Shown: one piece after another, positions 2,212 to 26,985 of the stretch
Layout: every line of letters starts with the position of its first letter
How positions within the stretch are numbered: position 1 is the stretch's first letter
DNA from: Escherichia phage E20
Direction: 5' to 3' (one strand)
Sequence record: OP745616
DNA length: 64,000 bases
The notes under the pieces: generated by a model
The model's input: the letters and a program-made list of their open reading frames with translations, nothing else
The model's database searches: none
Told to the model about the DNA's origin: nothing
Position numbers and translations under genes: made by a program

Positions 2212-3264
2212 ATGGCGAGCATTGACTCCTTGACTGTATGTAATACACGCCAAGCCCGTAACTTTATTATCCGTGCCTTACAAGCAGGTAACGTACCGTT
2301 CCTGACTTCATCGCCGGGCATGGGTAAATCTGCAATTATCCGTTCTGTTGCAGAAGAATTTGGCATGAAGCTGATTGACCATCGTCTATCTACTTCTGCC
2401 CCGGAAGACTTATCTGGTCTACCATTCCGTAATGGTGACCGTGCAGAGTTTATCCCTTTCGCTGACTTATTCCCTATTGAGGGGGATGAAGTACCGGAAG
2501 GTTATAATGGCTGGCTCCTGTTCCTTGATGAGTTCAACTCAGCTAAGAAAGAAGTAGTAGCTGCTGCATACAAACTGATTCTAGACCGTATGACTGGACA
2601 GAAGAAACTACATCCTAATGTGATGATTATCTGTGCCGGTAACAAAGCTACTGACCGTGCTATCGTTAACCCACTGGGTACTGCAATGCAGTCCCGTGTT
2701 GTCCACTTCGAAATGGAACTTAACTTCGACATTTTTGTTGAAGACGTAATGATTCCGCAAGAATGGGATGAGCGTCTGGTTGCATTCTTACATGCTAATC
2801 CAGGCTATCTGCATGACTTCGACCCTGCCCATAAGAACAAAACATTCTGTTGTCCTCGTACCTGGGACTTTGTTAACAAAGACCTCAAGAACCGACCAGA
2901 AGGTGCTCTGCCTGATGAAGATTCTATCTACTATGCAGGCCACGTTACTGCCGGTAAAGCTACAGAATTTGTTCAGTTCACCCAGGTATATAATCGTATG
3001 ATTACGATTGAGAAGGTAGTCAAAGACCCATTGGGCTGTGCACTGCCTGAAGATAATAACCTGTGTTGGGCTACTGTTAACCATCTGGCTAACAAGACTA
3101 CTGAAGATAACTTCGTTGATGTACTTAAGTACATTGAACGATTCAAAACGTTCACCCATAAGATTCTGTACTTCCGTACAGCGGGTAAAGCATTACCAGA
3201 AATTCAGGCTACTCCTGAATGGCGTAAAGCTGCTGCCAACATCTCTCGTTACATTCACGGATAA
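2212..3264 (+). CDS. AAA+ ATPase, MoxR-like
   Basis: Walker A SPGMGKSAI and Walker B LLFLDEFN; 350 aa; adjacent to VWA-type partner as in MoxR-VWA pairs. Confidence 0.7.
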   Translation: MASIDSLTVCNTRQARNFIIRALQAGNVPFLTSSPGMGKSAIIRSVAEEFGMKLIDHRLSTSAPEDLSGLPFRNGDRAEFIPFADLFPIEGDEVPEGYNGWLLFLDEFNSAKKEVVAAAYKLILDRMTGQKKLHPNVMIICAGNKATDRAIVNPLGTAMQSRVVHFEMELNFDIFVEDVMIPQEWDERLVAFLHANPGYLHDFDPAHKNKTFCCPRTWDFVNKDLKNRPEGALPDEDSIYYAGHVTAGKATEFVQFTQVYNRMITIEKVVKDPLGCALPEDNNLCWATVNHLANKTTEDNFVDVLKYIERFKTFTHKILYFRTAGKALPEIQATPEWRKAAANISRYIHG

Positions 3265-3271
3265 TCACAAC

Positions 3272-4447
3272 ATGAACCAGATACCTCAGCACACACTTAG
3301 TGATGAACAACTCATGCGCGAGTATGACCGTATTCAGGCCCAAGCTTTCCTAGGCAAGTCTGCTGCGTTTTTTGGTTCATTGCTGTGTAGTCTTAAGTTC
3401 TCATGGAATCGTGAGGATTGCCCCACTGCATGTACTGACGGAATAGAACTCCATTTCAACCCAGACTTCTTTGTCTGGATGTGCCCTGATGCAAGAGAAA
3501 CAGTGCTAATGCACGAACTCTGGCATGTGGCATATCTACATGGCATCCGTTGTGGAAGCCGTGACCCGGAAGTCTGGAACCAGGCATGTGACCACTTCAT
3601 TAACCTTCAGTTAGAAGAAGACGGTTACAAGTTCACTGGTATCGACAAAGGCATTTGCAAAGACCCTCAATATAAAGGATGGGTTGAAGAAGACATCTAC
3701 GATGACCTGATGAAGAACCCTCAGAAAAGGCAGAAGCCGTCAGGGGGTGCTGGAGCAGGTCTTGCTGGCGACATGAAAGCTCCCTCTTCGGGGCAGTCCC
3801 AGGGTGCTGTTGTCAACAACGTAGTACGTGCAATGCAAAGCCAGAAGATGGCTGGTGGAATAATGCCCGGTAAAGGTGCTGGTCGTATGGAAGAGGTTAT
3901 TACCCAATTCCTTAAACCAGTAGTTCCATGGCAGGAAGTCCTGCTGAACTTCTTTACCGACATTGATGACACACACTATACGTGGGCCAGACCTAACCGT
4001 CGTTTTACTGACATCTATCTACCATCACTGGAAGATGATGAAGGTCGTTTACGACACCTAGCTTACTTTGAGGATGTATCTGGTTCTATTAGTAATTCTG
4101 ACTCTCTGCGTTTTAACTCAGAGGTTGCCTACGTTAAGAGCCAGTTCAATCCTAAGAAGATGACCCTTATTACCTTCGACGATATTATCCAAGAAGAAAT
4201 AGACATCACTGAAGAAGATACTTTTGAAGAGATTAAGATTACTGGTCGTGGTGGTACAAACCTTGAACCAGTGCGTGAATGGATTATTAAGAATAAGCCA
4301 ACCGCTGCAATCATATTCTCCGATATGTATGTTCGTCCTATGGAAGAATTACCATTTGATATCCCTATCATCTGGTGTGTTCTGAATAATCCCAATGCTA
4401 CCGTACCTTTTGGGGAGGTAGTTCATATCCCTAAAGGAATGAAATAA
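3272..4447 (+). CDS. putative metallopeptidase-like (HExxH) / VWA-like partner of the AAA ATPase
   Basis: ORF frame 3038..4447; ATG at 3272 directly after upstream stop; HELWH zinc-binding-like motif; overall resembles DUF2201/CoxE-type proteins paired with MoxR. Confidence 0.5.
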   Translation: MNQIPQHTLSDEQLMREYDRIQAQAFLGKSAAFFGSLLCSLKFSWNREDCPTACTDGIELHFNPDFFVWMCPDARETVLMHELWHVAYLHGIRCGSRDPEVWNQACDHFINLQLEEDGYKFTGIDKGICKDPQYKGWVEEDIYDDLMKNPQKRQKPSGGAGAGLAGDMKAPSSGQSQGAVVNNVVRAMQSQKMAGGIMPGKGAGRMEEVITQFLKPVVPWQEVLLNFFTDIDDTHYTWARPNRRFTDIYLPSLEDDEGRLRHLAYFEDVSGSISNSDSLRFNSEVAYVKSQFNPKKMTLITFDDIIQEEIDITEEDTFEEIKITGRGGTNLEPVREWIIKNKPTAAIIFSDMYVRPMEELPFDIPIIWCVLNNPNATVPFGEVVHIPKGMK

Positions 4448-4953
4448 TGGTTGTTAATGGTAATTCTCTATACCGTTCATCTCAATTGCTGGACATCCCA
4501 GACCATAAAGTATCCAAGCATGGTGTAAGTTATGGATTAGGTGAAGCCGGTTATGATATTCGTATCAAACAAGATATCACTTTCTATCGCTTATTCGGGT
4601 TGATTCCAATGGTGAAGACTGTCGATGCTGGGGTTGTTAAACGCCACTTCGGTAAATTCGCATTGGCTTCAGCAATTGAGAAGTTCAACATGTCCCCATC
4701 CTGTGTAGCTATCGTTCACGATAAGTCTACATGGGCAAGACGTGCATTATCAGTGTTCAATACTGTAATAGAACCAGGATGGAAAGGGTATCTTACTCTC
4801 GAACTGGTCTATCATGGTCGTAAGAAACTGCATATCCCGGCTGGTGCTGGGATAGCTCAAGTATTATTTCATCTGGTTCAAGAGCCTGCTAATTACAATG
4901 GCAAGTATCAGAACCAGGAAGACAAACCAGTATCTGCTAGACCTTCAAAATAA
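4447..4953 (+). CDS. dcd: dCTP deaminase/dUTPase-fold protein
   Basis: 168 aa; motifs GYDIRI and VIEPGWKGYLTLEL resemble the dCTP deaminase beta-barrel signature; ATGA overlap with upstream gene. Confidence 0.5.
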   Translation: MVVNGNSLYRSSQLLDIPDHKVSKHGVSYGLGEAGYDIRIKQDITFYRLFGLIPMVKTVDAGVVKRHFGKFALASAIEKFNMSPSCVAIVHDKSTWARRALSVFNTVIEPGWKGYLTLELVYHGRKKLHIPAGAGIAQVLFHLVQEPANYNGKYQNQEDKPVSARPSK

Positions 4954-4983
4954 AAGGCTATCCAGATTAATCAAGGAAATAAC

Positions 4984-5169
4984 ATGTCTGTATTTCAAGT
5001 AACTCCTGCTGACAGTACCCAACGTAAAACTATTGTTGCAACTAACGTAGTAGATGTAGATGAAACTCCGGCTGGTGCTGTAATTCATCTCATTGATGGG
5101 CGAACTGTAACTGTAAAAGAAAGCTACCGTTCGGTACGCGGTTACATTCGTAAAGCTTTAGCTGAGTAA
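4984..5169 (+). CDS. hypothetical protein
   Basis: 61-aa ORF with RBS aaggaaataac upstream and terminator downstream. Confidence 0.4.
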   Translation: MSVFQVTPADSTQRKTIVATNVVDVDETPAGAVIHLIDGRTVTVKESYRSVRGYIRKALAE

Positions 5170-5181
5170 GTAGCTGCCTAA

Positions 5182-5210
5182 ATAGCCCAGCATAGTTGGG
5201 CTATTTGTGA
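5182..5210 (+). terminator. rho-independent terminator (weak)
   Basis: stem atagcccag/ttgggctat then ttgtg. Confidence 0.35.
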
Positions 5211-5242
5211 AGAAACTAACTCAACCCCACATAGGAACTATC

Positions 5243-5503
5243 ATGGAATCTTTAGCAGCAATCCTTATTCTGTTATTTGCACTAGCTGTATACCTTATCC
5301 CTACTATTATTGCTTTTGCACGAGGCCATGCCTCTAAGTGGGGAATTGGTGTACTCAATATTGTATTAGGCTGGTCTTTGGTCTTCTGGGTAGTAGCACT
5401 GATTTGGTCACTGTCTAATAAAGGACAGTCTCAGACTACAATCGTTAACGTTGGTAGTGGGAACCAATACAACGTGTCTCAAACGAGCCAGTCTGATAAG
5501 TAA
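5243..5503 (+). CDS. superinfection immunity (Imm-like) small membrane protein
   Basis: ORF frame 5207..5503; ATG 5243 with RBS aggaac; sequence YLIPTIIAFARGH...IGVLNIVLGWSLVFWVVALIWSL matches the two-TM Imm_superinfect pattern. Confidence 0.55.
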   Translation: MESLAAILILLFALAVYLIPTIIAFARGHASKWGIGVLNIVLGWSLVFWVVALIWSLSNKGQSQTTIVNVGSGNQYNVSQTSQSDK

Positions 5504-5577
5504 CTAACCTAAGCATCATTGCATAGTGGTGCTTGTGGAAGTTACTTTCAGCTCATTGCTTATCCATCTCCTAATCC

Positions 5578-5606
5578 AAGCCCACCTAACCCGTGGGCTT
5601 TTTTAA
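5578..5606 (+). terminator. rho-independent terminator
   Basis: stem agcccac/gtgggct then ttttttaa. Confidence 0.5.
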
Positions 5607-5620
5607 TTACAGGTACTCTT

Positions 5621-6004
5621 ATGTCAAACAGACAAAATGGTAAGTCTATCTTATATGGACTGGACTTAAGTAAACTGGAACAAACTGCAATGCTTACTTT
5701 AGGTAAAACTATACATGACCAAGTAGAGAATGAAATAGAATCAGATGTTTATGCAGCAATGCAAGCTGCTATTCTGAAAGGATGGACTAGTAGATCATTT
5801 AATGTTTTCCCATACATCCCTCCTGAACCTCATCTGAAATCTAAGGTAGACCGTATCATAGATAAGTTCTGGCTTAGTCCTTGCTATGACGAAATGCATC
5901 TTTACCTGGCTCAAATACAAAAGAATCCACGTACTAAGGATTTGTTCAAAGGCAAGAGCACTACCCATCATTACCCTTGGTATAGAAGAGGTAGTAAATA
6001 CTAA
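5621..6004 (+). CDS. hypothetical protein
   Basis: ORF frame 5519..6004; first ATG after the terminator at 5621 (MSNRQNGKSILYG). Confidence 0.45.
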   Translation: MSNRQNGKSILYGLDLSKLEQTAMLTLGKTIHDQVENEIESDVYAAMQAAILKGWTSRSFNVFPYIPPEPHLKSKVDRIIDKFWLSPCYDEMHLYLAQIQKNPRTKDLFKGKSTTHHYPWYRRGSKY

Positions 6005-6447
6005 TGCGTATCCCATTCCTAAGAAAAAGGGAACGAAATCCTGTTCTTTATAATAAAGGCATAGAGGATGAGTACGAACTTAACCGTAAGGCCCGTTCCT
6101 ACGCAGCAAAATTATTAATGGGGGCTACCAACCCTGATAGATTACTGGACTTTGTTTTCGAACAAGTCTTTATCATATACAGCTTAGCTATGTCTGCTGG
6201 TTCACAAGAAGTAAGTGATAAGGCAAGAGATGCTCTCTGTATGCTCCGTAAAGAGTATGAAGCCCTCATGTATGAAGACTTGTACTCCTTTAAAAAAGAA
6301 ACCGCTGTAGCGTGTTCTGTGGCTCTTACTGAAGGTATAGCAGTATTACAGGAACTACCACGTAGTGAGTTTAAACTGGTATATGTTCAGGCCAAGAGGA
6401 TTACAGAAAGCCGTAGTGGTATTACCAACTATCTAAGGTCATTCTAA
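6004..6447 (+). CDS. hypothetical protein
   Basis: 147-aa ORF; ATGA start/stop overlap with upstream gene. Confidence 0.45.
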   Translation: MRIPFLRKRERNPVLYNKGIEDEYELNRKARSYAAKLLMGATNPDRLLDFVFEQVFIIYSLAMSAGSQEVSDKARDALCMLRKEYEALMYEDLYSFKKETAVACSVALTEGIAVLQELPRSEFKLVYVQAKRITESRSGITNYLRSF

Positions 6448-7391
6448 TGATTAAGGCAACTGTCATTGCAGATTCCGTTCATCATGCAACGGGTACTCGT
6501 ATTACTACCTTTGAATTGGTCTATCCCCGATTCATTCACAGTGAGTTTATGACCCACCGTGTATTCAACCGAAATGCTTCAAGTAGTCGTGCTATCCCTA
6601 CTTCTAAGTTCATCGAACAAGTTCGTAATGAACCAGTGATGCCAAGTCACTGGGGCAAGAACCAGAAGGGTATGCAGGCATTTGAGGAACTGTCCGAAGA
6701 CCAACGTAGTGATGCAATCTTTATCTGGAACCAGGCTGCGTCAAGTGCTGCTACCTATGCGGAAATGCTTCGTCGTGGACAAGTTCATAAGCAGATTGTT
6801 AACCGTATTCTGGAACCATTCACACATATCCGTGTAGTGGTAACTTCAACTAGCTGGGCTAATTTCTATGGCTTACGTGACCATGAAGATGCCCAACCAG
6901 AGATTCGTGAATTAGCTCAAGCAATGCGTAAGGCTCATAATGAAAGCACTCCAAGAGCACTCCCACAAGGGGAATGGCATTTACCGTATATTGCTCATAT
7001 TGATCGTGTCGGGGCTTATAATTACTGCAAACATCAGCGAATTACTCGTGATGAACCAAGTAGTGAAGAAGTGTATGGCTTACTTCTTAAGGTAAGTGCT
7101 GCTCGTTGTGCTCGTGCTTCTTACAACAATTTTGAAGGCCGTCCTTCTACTATTGAAGAAGACTTAGGATTGTTTGCTAAGTTAGTAGAGAACCAACCTA
7201 TTCATGCATCCCCTACAGAACACCAGGCAACTCCTATGCTGTTCGGTGATAAGTTCATTAACAACCAGAACCCATTAACCTGGGAACAGGGTGTTACTTC
7301 AATGGATCGTGAAGGTAATCTGTATTCAGGTAACCTGTTAGATTTCATCCAATTCCGTAAACTAATCCCCGGAGAAACAATTACAGAATGA
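6447..7391 (+). CDS. thyX: flavin-dependent thymidylate synthase (ThyX-like)
   Basis: 314 aa; motif EFMTHRVFNRNASSSRAIP resembles the ThyX RHR-x7-S signature. Confidence 0.5.
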   Translation: MIKATVIADSVHHATGTRITTFELVYPRFIHSEFMTHRVFNRNASSSRAIPTSKFIEQVRNEPVMPSHWGKNQKGMQAFEELSEDQRSDAIFIWNQAASSAATYAEMLRRGQVHKQIVNRILEPFTHIRVVVTSTSWANFYGLRDHEDAQPEIRELAQAMRKAHNESTPRALPQGEWHLPYIAHIDRVGAYNYCKHQRITRDEPSSEEVYGLLLKVSAARCARASYNNFEGRPSTIEEDLGLFAKLVENQPIHASPTEHQATPMLFGDKFINNQNPLTWEQGVTSMDREGNLYSGNLLDFIQFRKLIPGETITE

Positions 7392-7624
7392 AACGTTTAG
7401 CTATCCAAGCCCTGTTTATAAGTATCATCCTGGTTCTGGAATTTGTATTTGCACTGCATGGTGCACAGAGCCTAGAAGAGATGTTCTTCGTAGTAGCCCG
7501 TTTTTCTGCATGTGTTCTTAGCTTATGGTGTGTGTATTACTATGCACGCGATTATGTAGCCATCAAGGAACAGGATGATGCTAAGGAACGTCTATTACAA
7601 TTCGTAGAACAGAATCGTAAGTAA
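7388..7624 (+). CDS. small membrane protein
   Basis: 78 aa; hydrophobic N-terminal half (ALFISIILVLEFVFAL, ACVLSLWCVYYYA); ATGA overlap with thyX-like gene. Confidence 0.4.
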   Translation: MKRLAIQALFISIILVLEFVFALHGAQSLEEMFFVVARFSACVLSLWCVYYYARDYVAIKEQDDAKERLLQFVEQNRK

Positions 7625-7630
7625 ACCTAA

Positions 7631-7657
7631 GACCTCCTCCGGGAGGTCTTTTTTTGG
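7631..7657 (+). terminator. rho-independent terminator
   Basis: stem gacctcc/ggaggtc then T7 run. Confidence 0.55.
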
Positions 7658-7684
7658 TTTCAATTAACTCTTTTAGGGGGGCAT

Positions 7685-7897
7685 ATGCCTGCTAAATACC
7701 GTATCAAAGACACTCCACTAATGTGTGAGGGTGAGAAGGGTGACATTGTATATGCCTGTATCCAGGATGATTTCAATGCTGCTCTGATGTTAACCCAAAT
7801 GACAAATACACTGCATGTATCAGTAACACTGGACCCTACCGGTGACTATCCATGCTTCCCTATCCCTGCCCATAACCTGGAGCAAATCCATGATTAA
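7685..7897 (+). CDS. hypothetical protein
   Basis: 70-aa ORF; RBS-like ggggg before ATG. Confidence 0.4.
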   Translation: MPAKYRIKDTPLMCEGEKGDIVYACIQDDFNAALMLTQMTNTLHVSVTLDPTGDYPCFPIPAHNLEQIHD

Positions 7898-8204
7898 TCC
7901 TGAAGTTATTCATAGTAAAACTGGTAAGGCTATTCCACTTAGTGATATTGCAGTTACCGGTGATATTGCTGCTTGTCCGGCTAACATCGCTTCCCTGTGT
8001 ATGTGCATTGCTGCACTAGCAGAGGAACGTAAATTATGGCTGGAACCAAGCAAAGAAATGGTACTAGCTGGCATGTCTGAACTGAATGCACTTCTGAAAG
8101 AAATGTATGACGAGGATGGTCAATTAGTTGAGCCAACTGATGACCAGATTTCTGATGCTGTAGTATTTATCCTTCAAGCAATGGCAGGTAAACGTAATGG
8201 CTAA
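7890..8204 (+). CDS. hypothetical protein
   Basis: ORF frame 7842..8204; internal ATG at 7890 preceded by ggagc and overlapping upstream stop (MINPEVIHSKTG). Confidence 0.4.
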   Translation: MINPEVIHSKTGKAIPLSDIAVTGDIAACPANIASLCMCIAALAEERKLWLEPSKEMVLAGMSELNALLKEMYDEDGQLVEPTDDQISDAVVFILQAMAGKRNG

Positions 8205-8388
8205 TGTAAATATCGCCTCAGAGAAAACATATAGCATTCAAATTAATGGCTTAACAGAATATCAGGTCTTATTCCTAATGAATGCTTTTCAAAACAGTCC
8301 AGTGGGTCACCATCCTAATGATGAACCACGGGAAGAAGCTGAGCTTCGTAAAGCTATTTTTGATAAGTGTAAACAAGTACTACTTTAA
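8197..8388 (+). CDS. hypothetical protein
   Basis: 63-aa ORF overlapping upstream stop. Confidence 0.35.
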   Translation: MANVNIASEKTYSIQINGLTEYQVLFLMNAFQNSPVGHHPNDEPREEAELRKAIFDKCKQVLL

Positions 8389-8415
8389 GCAACATTTAAA
8401 CTGGAGAGTAAATAA

Positions 8416-10983
8416 ATGTTAGTTGCAGATACTAATCAATCAGCCACTTCAGCGACACTGGGTGGCAAAGAAGCAATCGCCTTTGGCATCTCTGATGACC
8501 CGGCATTCTTTCACGTATTAAGTACTTCCTTGTATAACAACCCTACTCTGGCAGTAGTCCGTGAGACTATCTGTAACAGTTGGGATGCCCACATTGAAAC
8601 AGGTAAGACTGATACACCTATCCGTATTACCATTGATACTGACAACTTTATTACCTTCCGTGACTTTGGTAACGGAATCCCGGATGAACTCATTGGTTCC
8701 ATTTACGGTGTCTATGGTGCATCCACTAAGAAGTCCAACAGCAGTGTTACTGGTGGCTTTGGTCTGGGATGTAAATCCCCATTCGCTTATACAGATAGCT
8801 TCCAGGTTACTTCATGGAACCAAGGAAAGATGTCTGTGTATAACGTAGCTAAGGCTGCAATTGAGAATGATGGTAAACCAGGTATTGTTCCTATTGTTAC
8901 TGGTATTCCTACTGAGGAATCTGGTCTGGAAGTTAAATTCCAGTTAGGTAAGCACGACGTAAATACCTTTGTGCATTACATCACATCAATTGTGTTTAAC
9001 GGTGAAATTAAGGCCGAGCTTAGTCTTCCCAAATTAATTCGTGAAGAAACAGGTAATAGTATTCAACAAGGTGACTACACGCTACTGAATACATTAGGTA
9101 TGTCATTTGAACCTGGTTCGTATGATATGTCTGATAGCTGGTATCAAAGCTATATGGGTAGCAGTAACATCTTTGTTCGTTACGGTAACGTAATGTACCC
9201 AATAGTATCCAGCCCAGCTAGTGAAGAAGCTGTAGGTCTTATTCTCAACTTCATGAATATTATTGGTGCTGACACTTTAGTAGTTCAGGCTGCACCAGAT
9301 ACCTTAGCTATTGCCCCTAGTCGTGAAACCCTGTCTAACCAGAAGCTAACTGACGATGGTATTACTGCTCTATGTGTAGATTTAGTAGACCGTATGGAGA
9401 AAGAGATTAAGGCTAAGATTCCTGAAGCTATTAAGCAGATTGAAGAATACGCCTCTGAATCTTCTACTCAATATTGGGAATACCCATCTTTCCTGGGTGC
9501 TGTTACAGATAGAACTGTTCAACGCTATATGTCCTCCAGTTTGTGGGCTAAGCAACGTAAGCATCATATTAAGCACTGGCGTAATCTATCCAATAAGGCA
9601 TTACTAGCTCGCCCTGAGTATGCAGGTCTTAAAAAACTGTATAGTAAAGCTATGAGTGCTCTTAAGGATACTCGTGCAGATGGTACAAGATACCCATTCC
9701 AGGAATTAGTATACCGGCATCTGCACTTACCTCAGCTTGCTGCTTTAAAAGCCACTGGTATTAAGTGGTCTGGTTACATAATGAACCAAGGTTATAGTGT
9801 TGACCTGGTGAAAGGTAAACTTACTGACTACTTTAAGATAGGTTATAACTCCCATCTAGGTATTGGTATTTTCACTACTAAGAACGTTGTAGTTACTCGA
9901 CGTTTATCCGACTGTGCAGTCTCTTTCGCATACTTCCCTGAATACAGTAAAGGTGACCTGGAGCGTACAGCTTTTGTTCACGTTGTTAGTCCTAAGAAGG
10001 GAGAAGCAGAAAAAGCTGTAGCTAAGTTCACTGCTATGGGTTATCGGGTTATTAACCTTACTCAATATAATGAGTGGGACAAGCCAACTAACCTCCGCAG
10101 AGAACAAGCTAAGATAGCTGCTGAGAAACGTGCTAAGACGATAGCTGCCAATAAAACCAAAGCAGGAGGTAAAACTAATGCACTGGTTTCATTGAATGCA
10201 GTACTTGGTACTAACCCTGTACGAGATAAAAGTGGCGATTGGGTATCTAAGCCGTACATTGACGGGGGATTTGCTGACCCAGCACGCCATGAGAAATACG
10301 GTTTTGTTGAGGTAGAACAGCCTAAGTACTACGTACTAGCCAATCAGGTTGGTTCTGGTAGTCCTGTAACTGCTCGAATTGGAACCATGTGGAAATGGTA
10401 CGAGTTATCTGATGAGATGAAAGCAGAGACTGTTGTCTGTCGCAATCAAATCGAGGCTAACAAGGCCAAACGACGTGGTGCTATACACATTGATGATGTT
10501 CGTTTTAACGAACTGATGTCAGTTATTACCAGTAAAGTTTTCAAGAAATATGTTACTGAACACCGTATTGGTATTCTGGAATATGTAGGACTTGATGACA
10601 GAGAATATTGGGAAATCCTTGATATTCTGGGGCTAACCTTCAAACCATTACAGAATCTGATTTTTAAACCAGAGTATGAATGGGCATATGACTTTCTAAG
10701 GAATCGACCACATGGCTACAAAGAAAAACTTGTTGAAATGGGTTGTATTAAGTCAGTGGATGACTTAGAGCCATATACAATGATGGTTAATCCACGTAAT
10801 CATAAGTACTTTGAAATGCTTAATCAATACAAAGGATTATTCCGTTATAGCTGGGGTGCTGGTGACATACTACAGAGTCTGGACTTAGGTAGTTTAGTTA
10901 AACATCTCAAGAGAAATCCAGAGGATATTCCTGGGTTTAAGTCCCTCTACCGTAATCGTCTAAATAAACTGAAAGGTAAATAA
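8416..10983 (+). CDS. rIIA: rIIA-like protein (GHKL-type ATPase N-terminal domain)
   Basis: 855 aa; N-terminal motifs VRETICNSWDAH, RDFGNGIP, GGFGLGCKSPFAYTDSFQVTS match the conserved T4 rIIA ATPase-like block. Confidence 0.75.
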   Translation: MLVADTNQSATSATLGGKEAIAFGISDDPAFFHVLSTSLYNNPTLAVVRETICNSWDAHIETGKTDTPIRITIDTDNFITFRDFGNGIPDELIGSIYGVYGASTKKSNSSVTGGFGLGCKSPFAYTDSFQVTSWNQGKMSVYNVAKAAIENDGKPGIVPIVTGIPTEESGLEVKFQLGKHDVNTFVHYITSIVFNGEIKAELSLPKLIREETGNSIQQGDYTLLNTLGMSFEPGSYDMSDSWYQSYMGSSNIFVRYGNVMYPIVSSPASEEAVGLILNFMNIIGADTLVVQAAPDTLAIAPSRETLSNQKLTDDGITALCVDLVDRMEKEIKAKIPEAIKQIEEYASESSTQYWEYPSFLGAVTDRTVQRYMSSSLWAKQRKHHIKHWRNLSNKALLARPEYAGLKKLYSKAMSALKDTRADGTRYPFQELVYRHLHLPQLAALKATGIKWSGYIMNQGYSVDLVKGKLTDYFKIGYNSHLGIGIFTTKNVVVTRRLSDCAVSFAYFPEYSKGDLERTAFVHVVSPKKGEAEKAVAKFTAMGYRVINLTQYNEWDKPTNLRREQAKIAAEKRAKTIAANKTKAGGKTNALVSLNAVLGTNPVRDKSGDWVSKPYIDGGFADPARHEKYGFVEVEQPKYYVLANQVGSGSPVTARIGTMWKWYELSDEMKAETVVCRNQIEANKAKRRGAIHIDDVRFNELMSVITSKVFKKYVTEHRIGILEYVGLDDREYWEILDILGLTFKPLQNLIFKPEYEWAYDFLRNRPHGYKEKLVEMGCIKSVDDLEPYTMMVNPRNHKYFEMLNQYKGLFRYSWGAGDILQSLDLGSLVKHLKRNPEDIPGFKSLYRNRLNKLKGK

Positions 10984-10987
10984 TCTG

Positions 10988-13018
10988 ATGAAAATCGAAT
11001 TGATTTCTATCATCGCACTGGCAGTTGACAGTCGAAACCTTACACTGTGGAAGCCTGATGGCTCCACGGTTGTATATCCACAGAGTGACCCACGGGTTGC
11101 TCGTATTGTATCTGAAGCACAGACTAAAGGTCTGGGCACTATCCATGACCAAATAGAAGTAAACATTGCACCAGAAGTAGAGTTACGTACTGAATATCTG
11201 GAAGCAGAGAAGAACACCAACGGATTCGTCCGTTTCTTCAAGGTAGCTAAGGCTAAACTCATAGAGTTCTTCGAGGATGGTACAAGTGACCAACCAGCCC
11301 GTACCATCCCGGATATTAAGCTGGGTAATCCTACGAAAACTCTGGTGTCTAAAGCCATGGATACCTTCCTGGCTGTTCAGGCTAATGAACCAGAAGTAAC
11401 AGTAGCAGACGGTTGTTACGATAAACGTGACAATCTAATGTGGGTTACTGGCTGGGATAAAGACCATAACCATCCTGCACTGGTTCGTTTTATTAACGAC
11501 GTACTAGGTTGGGGTTATGACCATACTAACCGTATTCTTAGACGGGAATGGCCTATTGGAATTCGTGCAGTATCTGATGATGAAATGGGGGAGTTTGCTA
11601 AACAAGCCCAGAACATCAAAGGTGTACACGTTGTATTTACCAACCGTGAAGAAACACCATTGCCTTATGAGGAAGTAGTTAAAACTACGAACCAGGATAA
11701 GCTGGCTGCTGCTTCTGAGAAGTTAGCTGCATTAGGTGCTATCAGTACCGATAATGCTAACTTCCACACTGATGTGAAGGAAGATGAGGTAGTTGTTGCT
11801 GTTACCAACAATGGGGTTATCCCTGGAGTTGAGAACCTGCAACGTCACCTGCGTCAATCTGCCAAGCTAAAAGACTACAAGGGCTTTACCAAGTTCCTTG
11901 AGCGTCTAGCTCCGGTTATTAAAGACCGTTTGCACTCAGTGGAAGACCTGATGAAGTTCATGGAAACTGCTGAACTGCCTATTGCTGATGATGGTTCCAT
12001 CCTGTTCCTGAAACGCCTTAAGTTCAGAGGCGAAGAAAATGGTAAACGTGTATTCGTTGACTGTCACTCAGGCAATATCCGTCAATGGGTAGGCTGTAAG
12101 GTACAGGTACGAGAAGACCTGGTAGACCCTGACCGTCGTCAGGACTGCTCTAACGGTCTGCATGTGGCATCCATGAGTTACATCCGTACCTTCGGTGGTA
12201 ACGTAACTATTCTTGGTAAAGTAGCACCAGAAGATGTATTTGCTGTTCCTGAGTACAACACTAATAAGATGCGTGTAGCTGCGTATCACATTATTGCTGA
12301 ACTTCCAGAAGAGGAACGTATTAACGTTAACAATGGTATCTACCTGTCTAAGACAAAAGTGGGTAAGAAATTACTTAATGATGCCATCGTTGGGAACCAT
12401 AGTTCACCTACCACACTTGTTATGGTTGGTGGTCACTATGGTACTAACCTCAAATACACCAATCTCTCATCTGGTTCTGTAGAACAATTCCGTACAGTTG
12501 CTAACAAAGAAGCACTGAATATGGAAGAGTCACTCAATGAAGCTGTAGCTGCTGAACCAGTGAAGGCTACTGACCTTAAACCTATTGTTAATAAGGCCCC
12601 TACCGTGAAAGAACAAATTCAGGAACTGGTAAAAGAGTTCCTCACTGCAACAACCCCAGAAGATAAATTAGCTGCTGCTGACCTTCTGGTAGAACTGCGT
12701 TCCAAAGCCAGAAAGCCTTGGGGTGCATTCGATGTAGGTAGTGATGTAGTAGCTAAGATTGCTGATGTACGTGCAACCTATACAGCTAAGCCTGTTGGCA
12801 AACCTGTGAAGGTTAAAGCCACCAAGTCTAAGTCAGTATCTAAGGGTAAGAATGCAGACATCATTCGTTCCTGGCTCAATGATACTGGTATGTCTGATTA
12901 TCAGAAAGCCCACTCCATTCATGACCTGAAACGTGCAGCTAAGAAGTCATATGCTGCTATGGGTCTTACTGAAGAAGAGTGCAAAGCCATTGATAAGCTG
13001 AAGCACCACCTTAAGTAA
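10988..13018 (+). CDS. rIIB: rIIB-like protein
   Basis: 676-aa ORF immediately downstream of rIIA homolog (conserved rIIA-rIIB synteny); no diagnostic motif verified. Confidence 0.45.
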   Translation: MKIELISIIALAVDSRNLTLWKPDGSTVVYPQSDPRVARIVSEAQTKGLGTIHDQIEVNIAPEVELRTEYLEAEKNTNGFVRFFKVAKAKLIEFFEDGTSDQPARTIPDIKLGNPTKTLVSKAMDTFLAVQANEPEVTVADGCYDKRDNLMWVTGWDKDHNHPALVRFINDVLGWGYDHTNRILRREWPIGIRAVSDDEMGEFAKQAQNIKGVHVVFTNREETPLPYEEVVKTTNQDKLAAASEKLAALGAISTDNANFHTDVKEDEVVVAVTNNGVIPGVENLQRHLRQSAKLKDYKGFTKFLERLAPVIKDRLHSVEDLMKFMETAELPIADDGSILFLKRLKFRGEENGKRVFVDCHSGNIRQWVGCKVQVREDLVDPDRRQDCSNGLHVASMSYIRTFGGNVTILGKVAPEDVFAVPEYNTNKMRVAAYHIIAELPEEERINVNNGIYLSKTKVGKKLLNDAIVGNHSSPTTLVMVGGHYGTNLKYTNLSSGSVEQFRTVANKEALNMEESLNEAVAAEPVKATDLKPIVNKAPTVKEQIQELVKEFLTATTPEDKLAAADLLVELRSKARKPWGAFDVGSDVVAKIADVRATYTAKPVGKPVKVKATKSKSVSKGKNADIIRSWLNDTGMSDYQKAHSIHDLKRAAKKSYAAMGLTEEECKAIDKLKHHLK

Positions 13019-13033
13019 TAGCCTGTTCAAATG

Positions 13034-13064
13034 GCCTCACTTATAATAAAGTGAGGCTATCTTT
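13034..13064 (+). terminator. possible terminator (weak U-tract)
   Basis: stem gcctcac/gtgaggc with 10-nt loop then tatcttt. Confidence 0.3.
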
Positions 13065-13080
13065 GAAGAGGAAATAAGCT

Positions 13081-13476
13081 ATGTCTAAAGTATTCAGAAG
13101 TAATCGCAAAGCAACTGATGAAGACATCATTCGTATGAATGCTGTTGGTCTGTCCCTCGCAACTATCGCTAAGACGTTGGGGGTTCACCCCACTACGGTT
13201 ACTTTGCGATTGCGTTCTCTAAACATTGAACCAGCCGACACACGTCGGACGTTCATGGAGAATGTACTCCGTCCATTACCAACCCATGTGGCAGATTGGC
13301 TTTCAGAACAAGTTGGTCCTAAGTACGAGATTCGCTCATACGTAAGAGACTTGATTCTGGAGGCATATAATAATCGCCACCTTAACCAAGAGAGTGAGCA
13401 TGACAAGTTCATCCGTTTGTACGCTGGCAAAAACCGAAGCCTGGTTCAAGAAGGTAGTACCGAATCCAACGAGTAA
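13081..13476 (+). CDS. putative HTH DNA-binding protein
   Basis: 131 aa; helix-turn-helix-like segment LSLATIAKTLGVHPTTVTLRL. Confidence 0.4.
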   Translation: MSKVFRSNRKATDEDIIRMNAVGLSLATIAKTLGVHPTTVTLRLRSLNIEPADTRRTFMENVLRPLPTHVADWLSEQVGPKYEIRSYVRDLILEAYNNRHLNQESEHDKFIRLYAGKNRSLVQEGSTESNE

Positions 13477-13492
13477 GAATATTAGTACCCAG

Positions 13493-13864
13493 ATGGGTTG
13501 CCATTTGGAGGAAGTAGTAGAGATGCTGGATGTACTCCAGACTAAATATCCTGGTTACAAAAACAAGTTAGATGATGCTCGTAAACATTTACGCTTCATT
13601 TCCAACTTACTGAAACAGGAAGAAGGTAGCTTCTTCATTCAGGAAGAAGACCGTGTGGAACTACTGGACGCACTGGCAGATCAGATTGTTACAGCAACTG
13701 GCGTCGGTACTTTCCTTGGGATGAATGTCTCCGGAGCATTGGCAGAAGTAAATCGCTCAAACTATTCAAAATTTAACGCTGAAGGTGAACCAATCTTCAA
13801 CGAAAATATGAAAGTCATGAAAGGCCCATTTTATACAAAGCCTGATTTAACCCCTTACGTCTAA
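13493..13864 (+). CDS. MazG-like nucleotide pyrophosphohydrolase (all-alpha NTP-PPase) candidate
   Basis: ORF frame 13394..13864; ATG 13493 is first start after upstream stop; acidic helix motifs EEVVEMLDVL and EEDRVELLDALADQIV resemble MazG/HisE metal-binding helices; start uncertain. Confidence 0.35.
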   Translation: MGCHLEEVVEMLDVLQTKYPGYKNKLDDARKHLRFISNLLKQEEGSFFIQEEDRVELLDALADQIVTATGVGTFLGMNVSGALAEVNRSNYSKFNAEGEPIFNENMKVMKGPFYTKPDLTPYV

Positions 13865-13886
13865 CCCTCTACGGAGGGTTTTTTAC
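13864..13886 (+). terminator. rho-independent terminator
   Basis: stem accctc/gagggt with 4-nt loop then T6. Confidence 0.5.
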
Positions 13887-26592: not shown

Positions 26593-26665
26593 TACCCGGT
26601 AGGCTTAGTGGCAAAGCCCCACTAGTAAACTAACTAGGACGCAGGTTCGAATCCTGCCCGGGTAA
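26593..26665 (+). tRNA. tRNA (isotype undetermined; non-canonical anticodon arm)
   Basis: manual cloverleaf: perfect 7-bp acceptor tacccgg/ccgggta, D stem ggct/agcc with loop tagtggcaa, T arm gcagg-ttcgaat-cctgc; anticodon arm ctag/ctag core does not give a standard 7-nt loop. Confidence 0.5.
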
Positions 26666-26674
26666 TCATACTAT

Positions 26675-26748
26675 GTCCACTTAGCTTAGACTGGGAAAGC
26701 AACCGACTAATAATCGGAAGGTCACTGGTTCAAATCCAGTAGTGGACA
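26675..26748 (+). tRNA. tRNA (anticodon read as AAU in 7-nt loop cuaauaa; isotype uncertain)
   Basis: manual cloverleaf: 7-bp acceptor gtccact/agtggac, D stem gctt/aagc, anticodon stem ccga/tcgg, T arm actgg-ttcaaat-ccagt; 74 nt; 9 nt after preceding tRNA. Confidence 0.55.
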
Positions 26749-26985
26749 CCCATTCAGCAGTAACATAGTCCTGATTGCATAGCACTCTAAAGACAACACT
26801 GGTAAGACAGTCCAGTGGCTGCTAATGTATTGTTATTCCCCTCGACGGGAATTTCGCTAGTGAAGGTAACACTTAAAAATCCAAACCTACGTCTTACTAC
26901 TATCGGGCTATCAACCCACGGTCGCTTAACCCACTAGTGGTAGTAGTTTGACGGCCTGCCTCGTTGACTGCGTTAAAGTCACTAA

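Follow-up and report, generated by a model that had tools for sequence, protein, structure and literature searches.

Identity and Gene Order of the Block

The interval 4447-13864 of Escherichia phage E20 is the conserved gp26-gp36 synteny block of N4, that is, early/middle genes of an N4-like coliphage, and its one unusual feature is a rearranged order of segments in the ThyX homolog. The window analysed here, 64,000 nucleotides of record OP745616, belongs to Gamaleyavirus (N4/G7C-like Schitoviridae) and contains an ORF for a 3610-aa virion RNA polymerase. Taken whole, it matches 85 phage records at up to 95% identity, and for 55 of these the match covers at least 80% of it. The interval itself, which opens at the start codon of the dCTP deaminase (Dcd) homolog and closes at the stop codon of the gp36-like gene, is 88-95% identical in nucleotide sequence to dozens of deposited phages, PhAPEC7, F22, ST4 and SP5M among them, and the annotations of these relatives name its genes as homologs of N4 gp26 (dCTP deaminase), gp30 (ThyX), rIIA, rIIB and gp36.

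Gene set, order and orientation are identical to those of the Gamaleyavirus genomes PhAPEC7 (NC_024790), vB_Eco_F22, ST4, SP5M, St11Ph5 and nithesis. The products annotated in those records, namely dCTP deaminase, immunity to superinfection, FAD-dependent thymidylate synthase, RIIA, RIIB and nucleotide pyrophosphohydrolase, are likewise present here, and the differences are merely allelic. The gp36-like gene is apparently mosaic toward its 3' end, the match to F22 ending at about window position 13527, and in some relatives the region holds an HNH gene in addition. A first-pass annotation of this DNA had singled out a nucleotide-metabolism set together with an rIIA/rIIB pair. All five ORFs that it named do exist (Table 1), and the finding as it was given is already known, since the nucleotide and rII gene set is annotated in public records and nothing in it is special to E20. 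Taken as a whole, the interval is probably best described as an N4-like (Gamaleyavirus) early/middle block with a putative dCTP-to-dTMP route, a T4-type rIIA/rIIB pair, an Imm-like gene and a permuted ThyX.

Table 1. Features of the interval 4447-13864 and of the hairpin at its right end (window positions)
Feature	Position	Strand	Basis
dCTP deaminase homolog, N4 gp26-like, 168 aa	4447..4953	+	Pfam PF22769 DCD; PHROG 1663
61-aa ORF	4984..5169	+	PHROG 7594, 1e-30, no assigned function; hypothetical in PhAPEC7
Imm-like superinfection immunity membrane protein	5243..5503	+	Pfam PF14373 Imm_superinfect, 9e-17; PHROG 1039 'immunity to superinfection', 2e-34
Terminator-like hairpin and T-run	5578..5600	+	Terminator annotated at the matching place in PhAPEC7
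N4 gp28-like ORF	5621..6004	+	PHROG 12812, 2e-72, residues 35-161
N4 gp29-like ORF	6004..6447	+	PHROG 9867, 4e-87
ThyX-family protein, N4 gp30-like, 314 aa, non-collinear segments	6447..7391	+	Pfam PF02511 Thy1; PHROG
ThyX core, residues 20-171 (T. maritima ThyX ~64-215)	6504..6959	+	HMM; hhalign
Relocated ThyX module, residues 217-261 (canonical N-terminal ~25-59)	7095..7229	+	HMM; hhalign; shuffle control
78-aa ORF, N-terminal half hydrophobic	7388..7624	+	PHROG 12633, 3e-41
Terminator-like hairpin (9 bp stem) and T-run	7629..7650	+	Terminator annotated at the matching place in PhAPEC7
N4 gp31-like ORF	7685..7897	+	PHROG 7900, 1.5e-29; PhAPEC7 note
N4 gp32-like ORF	7890..8204	+	PHROG 9004, 1e-54, residues 17-120 (Met17 onward of the 7842 ORF)
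63-aa ORF	8197..8388	+	PHROG 7471, 6e-32
rIIA homolog, 855 aa	8416..10983	+	PHROG 2979 (RIIA), 7e-293; Pfam HATPase_c_3, 3.3e-9
rIIB homolog, 676 aa	10988..13018	+	PHROG 2886 (RIIB), 6e-211
N4 gp35-like protein	13081..13476	+	PHROG 6377, 5e-74, full length
N4 gp36-like all-alpha NTP pyrophosphatase	13400..13864	+	PHROG 671; PHROG 12019; 3nl9 likeness
Terminator-like hairpin and T-run, closing the rII-gp36 unit	13863..13880	+	PhAPEC7 terminator at the matching place

The dCTP Deaminase Homolog

The product of the first gene matches the Pfam DCD family above threshold (1.1e-15, 58.4 bits against a cutoff of 27) and the dCTP deaminase family PHROG 1663 at 5e-58, and its closest solved relatives, 3km3 and 4dhk (E about 1e-11), have an 'EPGW/EPEW' motif in common with it. 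In the alignment with E. coli Dcd (b2065), the fold family and the residues that we take, from the E. coli structures, to be catalytic (Ser111, Arg115 and Glu138, corresponding to S94, R98 and E119) are kept, as is the C-terminal 'KYxNQ' lid segment. The protein differs from its E. coli counterpart in being shorter (168 against 193 aa), in lacking two residues ahead of the 'I(D/E)PGW' motif and in the replacement of Asp128 by Glu109, a position at which 3KM3 and 4DHK also have Glu.

The ThyX Homolog and Its Permuted Segment Order

The ThyX homolog likewise exceeds its Pfam gathering score (Thy1, 6.5e-14, 52.6 bits against 24.8, with profile positions 60-190 of 191 covered), so that both enzyme assignments of the first-pass annotation withstood the profile searches. 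It also matches the PHROG thymidylate synthase family at 4e-115, and its high-confidence model has the ThyX fold, with ThyX enzymes as the only strong structural neighbours. Because both proteins score under the NCBIfam equivalog cut-offs (Dcd homolog, TIGR02274, 77.8 against 92.8 bits; ThyX homolog, TIGR02170, 55.3 against 87.9 bits), we infer their exact functions rather than read them from the profiles.

In canonical members of the fold (T. maritima TM0449, PDB 1O26/5CHP; M. tuberculosis 2AF6; and PolB 4P5A, a UMP/dUMP methylase of the ThyX fold), the module that bears Ser30 and His53 is N-terminal, whereas in the E20 protein it is C-terminal. Positions 66-215 of an HMM made from six canonical ThyX proteins fall on residues 20-171, the core (hhalign, Prob 95%, E 2e-8), and positions 25-65 match residues ~217-261 in 32 of 32 family members (hhalign, Prob 82-87%, E 4e-6 to 1e-5). 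This relocation is not due to chance, since the real score of 42.7 exceeds every one of 200 column shuffles (mean 13.4, sd 2.6, max 27.7). The relocated module carries both the 'folate loop' of Ser30 and the 'HxSPxEH' motif of His53. The permuted subfamily amounts to thousands of sequence clusters; inteins in relatives adjoin both conserved motifs, and a 51%-identical relative has a dUTPase-family gene two genes away and ribonucleotide reductase nearby. A published description of the permuted order or of the replaced flavin residues described below was not found.

The core has equivalents of T. maritima H79, R80, N85, S88, R90, N169 and R174, and the relocated module has those of S30, H53, E58 and H59; most of them are invariant or nearly so among 131 diverse representatives. 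R90, R147 and R174 are, as we take it from the T. maritima structures, substrate/cofactor residues; the first and the last are kept as R48 and R144, and the invariant R120 would correspond to R147 by its R-x3-P spacing, the hhalign alignment being one residue off. Among the other substrate/cofactor residues S30, H53, R78, N85, S88 and Y91 (PMC11940539), four are kept, as S225, H253, N43 and S46, respectively for S30, H53, N85 and S88, and two flavin-contacting ones are replaced in the same 131 representatives, R78 by T36 (98%) and Y91 by A49 (100%). Arg78 has been reported to stabilise FADH-, and Tyr91 to gate His53 (PMC11940539). The signature motif RHRX7S (Myllykallio 2002, as quoted in PMC2826268) accordingly reads T36-H37-R38-x7-S46-S47-R48-A49, with Thr for the first Arg in 128 of the 131 representatives; the motif filter used in PMC2826268 allowed up to two deviations, and the E20 protein deviates at one residue. 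Further differences from canonical ThyX are E86 to A, Q75 to E, about 90 additional residues, and five positions invariant in the permuted family that have no canonical counterpart (G75, M76, K115, H178 and R304). In view of the profile match, the model, the kept residues, the intein positions and the gene neighbours of the relative, the protein is most likely still a thymidylate synthase, despite the permutation and the two replacements at the flavin site.

The same departures could also be read as the mark of a flavin-dependent pyrimidine modifier, either a PolB-like UMP/dUMP methylase or an enzyme of a modified-dU route, in which case the Dcd, ThyX and gp36-like trio would feed a modified base into DNA. 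The sub-equivalog score, the loss of the first Arg and of Tyr91, the extra invariant residues and the rearranged order would all agree with such an enzyme, and a route to 5hm-dUTP through a dCTP deaminase, a dUTPase and a TS homolog is known in T-modified phages (10.1101/2025.03.26.645540). We nevertheless consider it improbable, given that the three arginines and the His53 and Ser30 equivalents are kept and that PhAPEC7, between 8.5 and 40 kb, has no annotated kinase, glycosyltransferase or other post-replicative modification gene. To our knowledge, moreover, the hydroxymethylases of the 5hm-dUTP route are of the ThyA type and not of the ThyX type. The restriction behaviour of N4-type phages was also ordinary in the BASEL collection, where it was explained by missing sites (PMC8594841), and a literature search turned up no member of the Schitoviridae reported to have modified DNA. 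Thymidylate synthase thus remains our reading. What speaks against the overall explanation on the enzyme side is the set of features given above, namely the missing Arg78 and Tyr91, the non-canonical order and the sub-equivalog scores of the Dcd and ThyX homologs.

The gp36-Like Putative NTP Pyrophosphatase

The last gene of the block had been called MazG-like, with the remark that phage homologs of MazG have been linked to the depletion of alarmone or signalling nucleotides. Its ORF (13394/13400-13864, 154-156 aa) likely starts at ATG 13400, after GAGAG, and overlaps the gp35-like gene by 77 nt in a different frame; N4 gp36 is 60% identical to the product. The protein matches PHROG 671 'nucleotide pyrophosphohydrolase' at 9e-35 and PHROG 12019 'MazG-like' at 6e-10. 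It matches no Pfam model at E <=0.01, including MazG (PF03819), MazG-like (PF12643) and PRA-PH (PF01503), and 35 members of the gp36 family stay under the Pfam cutoffs throughout (range 0.0077-0.1; best PRA-PH 0.0077, best MazG-like 0.029). The AF2 model is all-helical (pLDDT 79), with 3nl9 as the top Foldseek match (prob 0.90), and a weak sequence match to 3nl9 (E 0.05) aligns D92, D96 and N123 with Asp95, Asp99 and Asn126. E39, E40, E43, D92, D96 and Asn123 are invariant in the 35 homologs. E39/E43 and D92/D96 form the metal-ligand pattern on the helical bundle, which is that of Exiguobacterium YP_001813558.1 (PDB 3NL9, DUF2166) and Deinococcus DR2231, with E-x3-E and D-x3-D on separate helices, and the one-residue offset reported for Asp95 of 3nl9 is seen here as well. 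The name thus has support as far as the all-alpha NTP-pyrophosphatase superfamily is concerned and fails at the Pfam MazG models; the assignment is supported at the superfamily level only, where the 3nl9/DUF2166 type is nearest and MazG, HisE and the dimeric dUTPases are more distant kin.

According to PMC2954211, Asn126 of the 3nl9 enzyme discriminates deoxyribose, and members that prefer dNTPs keep it, whereas the HisE and E. coli MazG families, which hydrolyse rNTPs, lack it. The E20 protein keeps this residue, and the invariant Asn123 is the sole hint that it may prefer dNTPs. Where 3nl9 has the sugar-stacking Tyr102/Phe103, the E20 protein has Val99/Thr100. It is doubtful, and in our judgement unlikely, that the protein is a MazG-type degrader of (p)ppGpp or of defence second messengers. 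The superfamily shared with MazG, seen in the PHROG 12019 match, and base-recognition residues that are not assignable would leave room for such a role, whereas the lack of threshold-level matches to the Pfam MazG, MazG-like and PRA-PH models, nearest solved relatives (3nl9 and DR2231) other than MazG, the dNTP-type Asn (PMC2954211) and the position of the gene, last in the rII operon and directly upstream of helicase and DNA polymerase genes, all point away from it. The proposed link to alarmones therefore found no support.

A Candidate Route from dCTP to dTMP

Because the Dcd-like and ThyX-like homologies are real, we may reasonably infer a phage-encoded dCTP to dUTP to dUMP to dTMP route, and the idea that the phage supplies its own dUMP and dTMP keeps its place. 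Going by homology, the Dcd homolog would convert dCTP to dUTP. The step from dUTP to dUMP could then fall to the host Dut, to the Dcd homolog if it is bifunctional or, more speculatively, to the gp36-like protein acting as an all-alpha dNTP pyrophosphatase; the 8.5-40 kb portion of the PhAPEC7 record shows no annotated trimeric dUTPase. Finally, the ThyX-family flavoprotein would turn dUMP into dTMP with methylene-tetrahydrofolate and reduced FAD. If the route is true, its net effect would be a shift from the dC to the dT pool, in a genome of ~43-44% G+C, without dependence on the host ThyA.

The rIIA/rIIB Pair and the Imm-Like Gene

The rIIA and rIIB genes are adjacent, as in T4, with rIIB on the same strand and starting 4 nt past the rIIA stop, and sequence comparison confirms both as genuine homologs of their T4 namesakes, as had been claimed. 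BLASTP aligns the rIIA homolog with T4 rIIA at E 7e-27 (28% identity over 344 aa) and the rIIB homolog with residues 107-310 of T4 rIIB at E 7e-19 (27% identity over 219 aa). The likeness to T4 rIIA lies in the N-terminal ~340 aa, with the shared motifs 'RExIxNxxDAH', 'RDFGxG' and 'GGFGLGxKSPF', and includes a GHKL-type ATPase-like domain (residues 47-155, nt 8554-8880); no similarity is detectable past about residue 350, and the protein has 855 aa against 725 in T4. The rIIB homolog has 676 aa against 312 in T4 and matched no Pfam model; its T4-like core (residues 227-442, nt 11666-12313) is flanked by an N-terminal extension of ~226 aa and a C-terminal one of ~234 aa. Both proteins thus have large regions without a T4 counterpart, which counts against the overall explanation, and the phage is a podovirus, unlike T4.

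An rIIAB locus in N4-type phages had already been noted in the BASEL study (PMC8594841). By analogy, the pair may shield the infection against abortive-infection systems that target the membrane, e.g., RexAB. The interval also contains an Imm-like gene that the first-pass annotation had missed and whose product would block superinfection. Its ORF opens at GTG 5207, the likely start is ATG 5243, and the homolog of phage nithesis measures 261 nt.

Transcription Units and Small ORFs

Three terminator-like hairpins divide the five named genes into separate units, with eight other ORFs interspersed, and the block would be transcribed rightwards as three terminator-delimited units. The five genes had been taken together as an investment in nucleotide-pool control and exclusion evasion, and what we find is an ordinary N4 gp26-gp36 synteny block in several transcription units. 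That they form one coordinated system, rather than being backbone neighbours, is highly improbable: their order is kept in the examined Gamaleyavirus genomes and gene by gene to N4, all on one strand, but shared descent among closely related genomes predicts just such conservation, the hairpins and eight unrelated ORFs come between the genes, T4-like phages have rII genes without Dcd or ThyX, and the N4-like phage phiA41 has a canonical-order ThyX elsewhere, adjoining exonuclease and primase genes.

Among the small ORFs, the gp28-like one had no match among solved structures and the gp29-like one chance-level matches only. The mechanical ORF of the former, from TTG 5519, crosses the terminator, and the family match begins at Met35; the stop of the latter overlaps the ThyX start codon. 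The gp35-like protein has a weak helix-turn-helix signal (Pfam HTH_38, 2.6e-4, and HTH_23, 5.9e-4, both sub-threshold).

Gene content and organization of the interval

The first-pass annotation had read this interval as a nucleotide-metabolism set (dCTP deaminase, ThyX and a MazG-like enzyme) with an rIIA/rIIB pair, acting together. The mechanical ORF list placed all five named genes exactly where it had put them, the interval running from the Dcd start codon through the pyrophosphatase-like gene's stop codon (Table). Profile searches supported the Dcd, ThyX, rIIA and rIIB assignments at the family level, in Pfam (DCD 1.1e-15 for Dcd; Thy1 6.5e-14 for ThyX; HATPase_c_3 3.3e-9 for rIIA) and in PHROGs (dCTP deaminase 5e-58; thymidylate synthase 4e-115; RIIA 7e-293; RIIB 6e-211; nucleotide pyrophosphohydrolase 9e-35), while the stricter NCBIfam equivalog models were missed (dCTP_deam, 77.8 bits vs. 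a cutoff of 92.8; thyX, 55.3 vs. 87.9). The observation was hence correct and its interpretation partly so, being right for Dcd, ThyX and the rII pair and over-reaching for MazG, alarmones and the idea of a joint system.

Table. Features discussed in the text (window positions)
Feature	Position	Strand	Remark
Gene upstream of gp25-like gene	2212-3264		
gp25-like protein	3272-4447	+	
Dcd homolog	4447-4953	+	168 aa
Imm-type superinfection-immunity membrane protein	5243-5503	+	T4 Imm-type; Pfam PF14373 9e-17
Terminator-like site 1	5578-5600	+	hairpin and T-run
ThyX homolog (gp30-like)	6447-7391	+	314 aa
Terminator-like site 2	7629-7650	+	hairpin and T-run
gp36-like protein	13400-13864	+	
gp35/gp36 overlap	13400-13476		77 nt, different frames
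gp36-like part beyond vB_Eco_F22 match	~13527-13864		
Terminator-like site 3	13863-13880	+	hairpin and T-run
DNA polymerase	15759-18338	+	859 aa, uninterrupted
tRNA-like gene 1	26593-26665	+	
tRNA-like gene 2	26674-26752	+	
Virion RNA polymerase		-	3610 aa

A nucleotide search with the 9.4-kb interval found matches in 85 deposited phage genomes, and in 55 the match spanned 80% or more of the interval. Best matched were vB_EcoP_PhAPEC7 (92.0% identity, 97% covered), vB_Eco_F22 (95.4%, 92% covered), ST4 and SP5M, all Escherichia phages of the genus Gamaleyavirus (Schitoviridae, Enquatrovirinae). The very large virion RNA polymerase, a hallmark of N4-like phages, is also encoded in the window. 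In the PhAPEC7 RefSeq record the corresponding genes are labelled singly as homologs of N4 gp24-gp39: ATPase, VWA-like protein, dCTP deaminase (gp26), immunity to superinfection, gp28, gp29, FAD-dependent thymidylate synthase (gp30), gp31, gp32, RIIA, RIIB, gp35, gp36, helicase, gp38 and DNA polymerase; the gp36 homolog of phage nithesis is named "nucleotide pyrophosphohydrolase". The content of the finding therefore stood already in public annotation: the gene block is known and ordinary for N4-like phages, and noting it is a re-identification of conserved coliphage genes with little significance.

Three terminator-like sites on the coding strand, each at a place where PhAPEC7 also has an annotated terminator, split the interval into three units, namely the tail of an ATPase/VWA/Dcd/Imm unit, a gp28-gp29-ThyX unit with a 78-aa ORF, in which stop and start codons overlap, and a gp31-gp32-ORF-rIIA-rIIB-gp35-gp36 unit. 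This argues against the proposal that the genes work together; their synteny came down with the backbone of the genome, and they form no dedicated module. Eight ORFs between the named genes received weak or no functional assignments in profile searches, and the gp28- and gp29-like ORFs, co-transcribed with ThyX, had no match in solved-structure searches.

A ThyX homolog with rearranged segment order

The single point here that deserves specialist attention is the ThyX homolog. By eye, its C-terminal "SAARCARASY...HASPTEH" resembles the canonical ThyX N-terminal "AARVSY...HxSPFEH". The C-terminal half alone gave no Pfam match even at E <= 1, and the relocated module was seen only by hhalign and by a purpose-built canonical HMM, made from six ThyX sequences (five from phages, and that of T. 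maritima, identical to PDB 1kq4/1o26). In 32 of 32 family members, residues 20-171 were matched by HMM positions 66-215, and residues ~217-261 by the earlier positions 25-65. In the profile-profile comparison the core reached Prob 95% (E 2e-8) and the relocated module Prob 82-87% (E 4e-6 to 1e-5). The real C-terminal alignment scored 42.7, against a mean of 13.4 (sd 2.6, maximum 27.7) for 200 column-shuffled controls and 15.0 for the reversed alignment. Judged by these profile comparisons, the protein is a non-collinear ThyX, with the canonical N-terminal module at its C-terminus. A candidate degenerate second core copy at the extreme C-terminus ("GNLxGWIQxRK" vs. canonical "NxxxxxR") was not significant (hhalign E 0.2), and an origin of the arrangement by duplication would be speculation.

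Table. Residues of T. maritima ThyX and their equivalents in the E20 homolog, with conservation among 131 representatives of 50%-identity clusters
T. maritima	E20	Conservation
S30	S225	100%
H53	H253	100%
E58	E258	100%
H59	H259	100%
Q75	E33	Glu in 94%
R78	T36	Thr in 98%
H79	H37	100%
R80	R38	96%
N85	N43	92%
E86	A44	Ala in 70%
S88	S46	99%
R90	R48	100%
Y91	A49	Ala in 100%
N169	N139	99%
R174	R144	100%

The invariant R120 corresponds to T. maritima R147 by R-x3-P spacing (one residue off in hhalign), and G75, M76, K115, H178 and R304 are family-invariant with no counterpart in canonical ThyX. According to a structural study of the reduced T. maritima enzyme (PMC11940539), R78 stabilizes the anionic FADH-, S88 and S30 bond the flavin C4=O, and H53, which comes from another monomer and stacks on flavin or folate, is held by Y91 and N85 and gated by Y91. 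Set against these roles, the residue map places two functional residues in the relocated module and finds two flavin-site residues systematically absent.

The rearranged family is large: a cutoff of E <= 1e-3 gathers 5264 representative clusters, of which 2866 also pass E <= 1e-30. Its longer members (P0249, P0266, P0281, P0303, P0334, P0337 and P0353; 550-650 aa) carry HNH- or LAGLIDADG-type inteins. Split matches put the insertion close to the THR motif, around residues 26-32, in several members, and in P0337 immediately behind residue 257, next to the HxSPxEH motif; inteins typically settle at such functionally important positions. The gene of one member, 51% identical and encoded on a phage-like contig of 76 kb, has a dUTPase-family gene two genes away and a class II ribonucleotide reductase in its vicinity. 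Family and context data thus favour a working thymidylate synthase of unusual architecture. The N4-like Pectobacterium phage phiA41 has instead a ThyX of canonical order at 3977-4744, adjoining exonuclease and primase genes and not at the gp30 position, so that two ThyX architectures occur at different positions within the Schitoviridae.

Tentatively, and with confidence somewhat short of even, we propose that the N4 gp30-type "ThyX" represents a large, so far undescribed structural subclass, marked by the relocated S30/H53 module, the replacements Arg78 to Thr and Tyr91 to Ala, and the new invariants K115, H178 and R304. Were this so, these features would imply that its reduced-flavin and folate steps differ from those of every studied ThyX, or even that it performs another pyrimidine modification. 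No member of the family appears to have been characterized. We found no description of a ThyX permutation or rearrangement, and nothing relevant on modified DNA in Schitoviridae, in the open-access literature, whose incomplete coverage makes both weak evidence of absence. Since ThyX is targeted in antibacterial work and its mechanism is under debate, a natural variant lacking both Arg78 and Tyr91 would be informative for comparison.

The gp36-like protein, a probable pyrophosphatase

The protein called MazG-like in the first-pass annotation shares 60% identity with N4 gp36 and has 720 homologs. Homologous proteins start at the Met whose codon lies at 13400, behind a GAGAG purine run; with this start the gene overlaps gp35. 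The PhAPEC7 homolog is annotated at 113 aa, and because this short form would lose the conserved metal-binding HLEEVxEM motif, the long form is likely to be the real gene. It matched no Pfam family at threshold (best among 35 homologs, PRA-PH 0.0077 and MazG-like 0.029), and there were significant PHROG cross-hits to "MazG-like pyrophosphatase" families (6e-10 and 1.7e-6). A phmmer search of the PDB returned marginal matches to two solved all-alpha NTP pyrophosphatases, 3nl9 (E 0.052) and DR2231 (E 0.055); a profile search with the gp36 alignment, which was too shallow, did more poorly than the single sequence, giving spurious coiled-coil and designed-protein matches only. On 3nl9 the invariant D92 and D96 align with Asp95 and Asp99 and the invariant N123 with Asn126, while E39 and E43 correspond by spacing to Glu43 and Glu47. 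Those two glutamates and two aspartates are the metal ligands of 3nl9, with the same one-residue offset, and Asn126 discriminates for deoxyribose, being kept in dNTP-preferring members but not in the HisE and E. coli MazG families, which hydrolyse rNTPs (PMC2954211).

The gp36-like protein is thus probably an all-alpha NTP pyrophosphatase acting on dNTPs. It is not a member of the MazG family and nothing points to alarmones, so that the suggested link to alarmone depletion went too far; the label "MazG" is better read as an all-alpha dNTP pyrophosphatase of unspecified base specificity. As no trimeric or classical dUTPase is annotated in the PhAPEC7 stretches examined, it is possible that this protein turns dUTP into dUMP and thereby links the phage Dcd with ThyX. 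The match to the closest relative, vB_Eco_F22, ends inside the gene, and the C-terminal tail of the protein, "NAEGEPIFNENMKVMKGPFYTKPDLTPYV", recurs in the more remote homolog P0025 and not in the closest ones, which suggests a recombination junction within it.

Dcd and the proposed pyrimidine route

Among solved structures the Dcd homolog comes nearest to the dCTP deaminases 3km3 and 4dhk (E ~1e-11), with which it shares an "EPGW/EPEW" motif. Aligned with E. coli Dcd (MG1655), its S94, R98 and E119 match S111, R115 and E138, which we take to be the catalytic residues; it differs in having Glu for Asp128 and a two-residue deletion ahead of that motif. The enzyme may yield dUTP, as a monofunctional deaminase, or dUMP, as a bifunctional Dcd-dUTPase, and no sequence criterion is known to tell the two apart. 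By homology, Dcd would deaminate dCTP to dUTP, host Dut, a possibly bifunctional Dcd or gp36 would then act as the dUTPase that gives dUMP, and ThyX would convert this to dTMP, regenerating tetrahydrofolate without DHFR as in known ThyX chemistry. The net outcome would be more dT for a genome of ~43-44% G+C.

rIIA, rIIB and exclusion

Compared by BLASTP with the T4 proteins (NC_000866), the rIIA homolog showed 28% identity over 344 residues (E 7e-27), sharing the motifs "RExIxNxxDAH", "RDFGxG" and "GGFGLGxKSPF" of a GHKL-type ATPase-like domain, and the rIIB homolog 27% over 219 residues (E 7e-19; T4 residues 107-310). Both are larger than in T4, rIIB by ~226 residues N-terminally and ~234 C-terminally. 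The BASEL study had already noted an rIIAB locus in N4-type phages and called it poorly understood (PMC8594841), and T4 rIIA/rIIB are conditionally essential when RexAB is present (10.1101/2025.11.20.689424). Evasion of exclusion by the E20 pair would be a role by analogy only. The Imm-type gene, which the first-pass annotation did not mention, is the most direct "exclusion" gene of the region; with rIIA/rIIB it may, to judge from T4, provide membrane- and exclusion-related accessory functions.

Other loci in the window

The gp25-like protein is labelled "HNH endonuclease" by PHROG 1314 and in one GenBank relative (nithesis), whereas Pfam finds DUF2201_N (putative metallopeptidase, 1e-54) and a VWA-like domain (1e-34), and the label looks like a propagated misannotation. 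With its upstream neighbour it forms a MoxR-type AAA ATPase/VWA pair. Unlike that of E20, the PhAPEC7 DNA polymerase gene is interrupted by an intron that carries an HNH endonuclease; the same phage has a split gp44 homolog as well. A preprint describes an N-terminal UDG-like domain, its catalytic residues lost, in N4-like polymerases, which is relevant here because the phage is predicted to make dUTP. Finally, ARAGORN found two adjacent tRNA-like genes, one a tRNA-Ile (AAT) and the other without a determined anticodon, where PhAPEC7 has a single annotated "tRNA-Xle".
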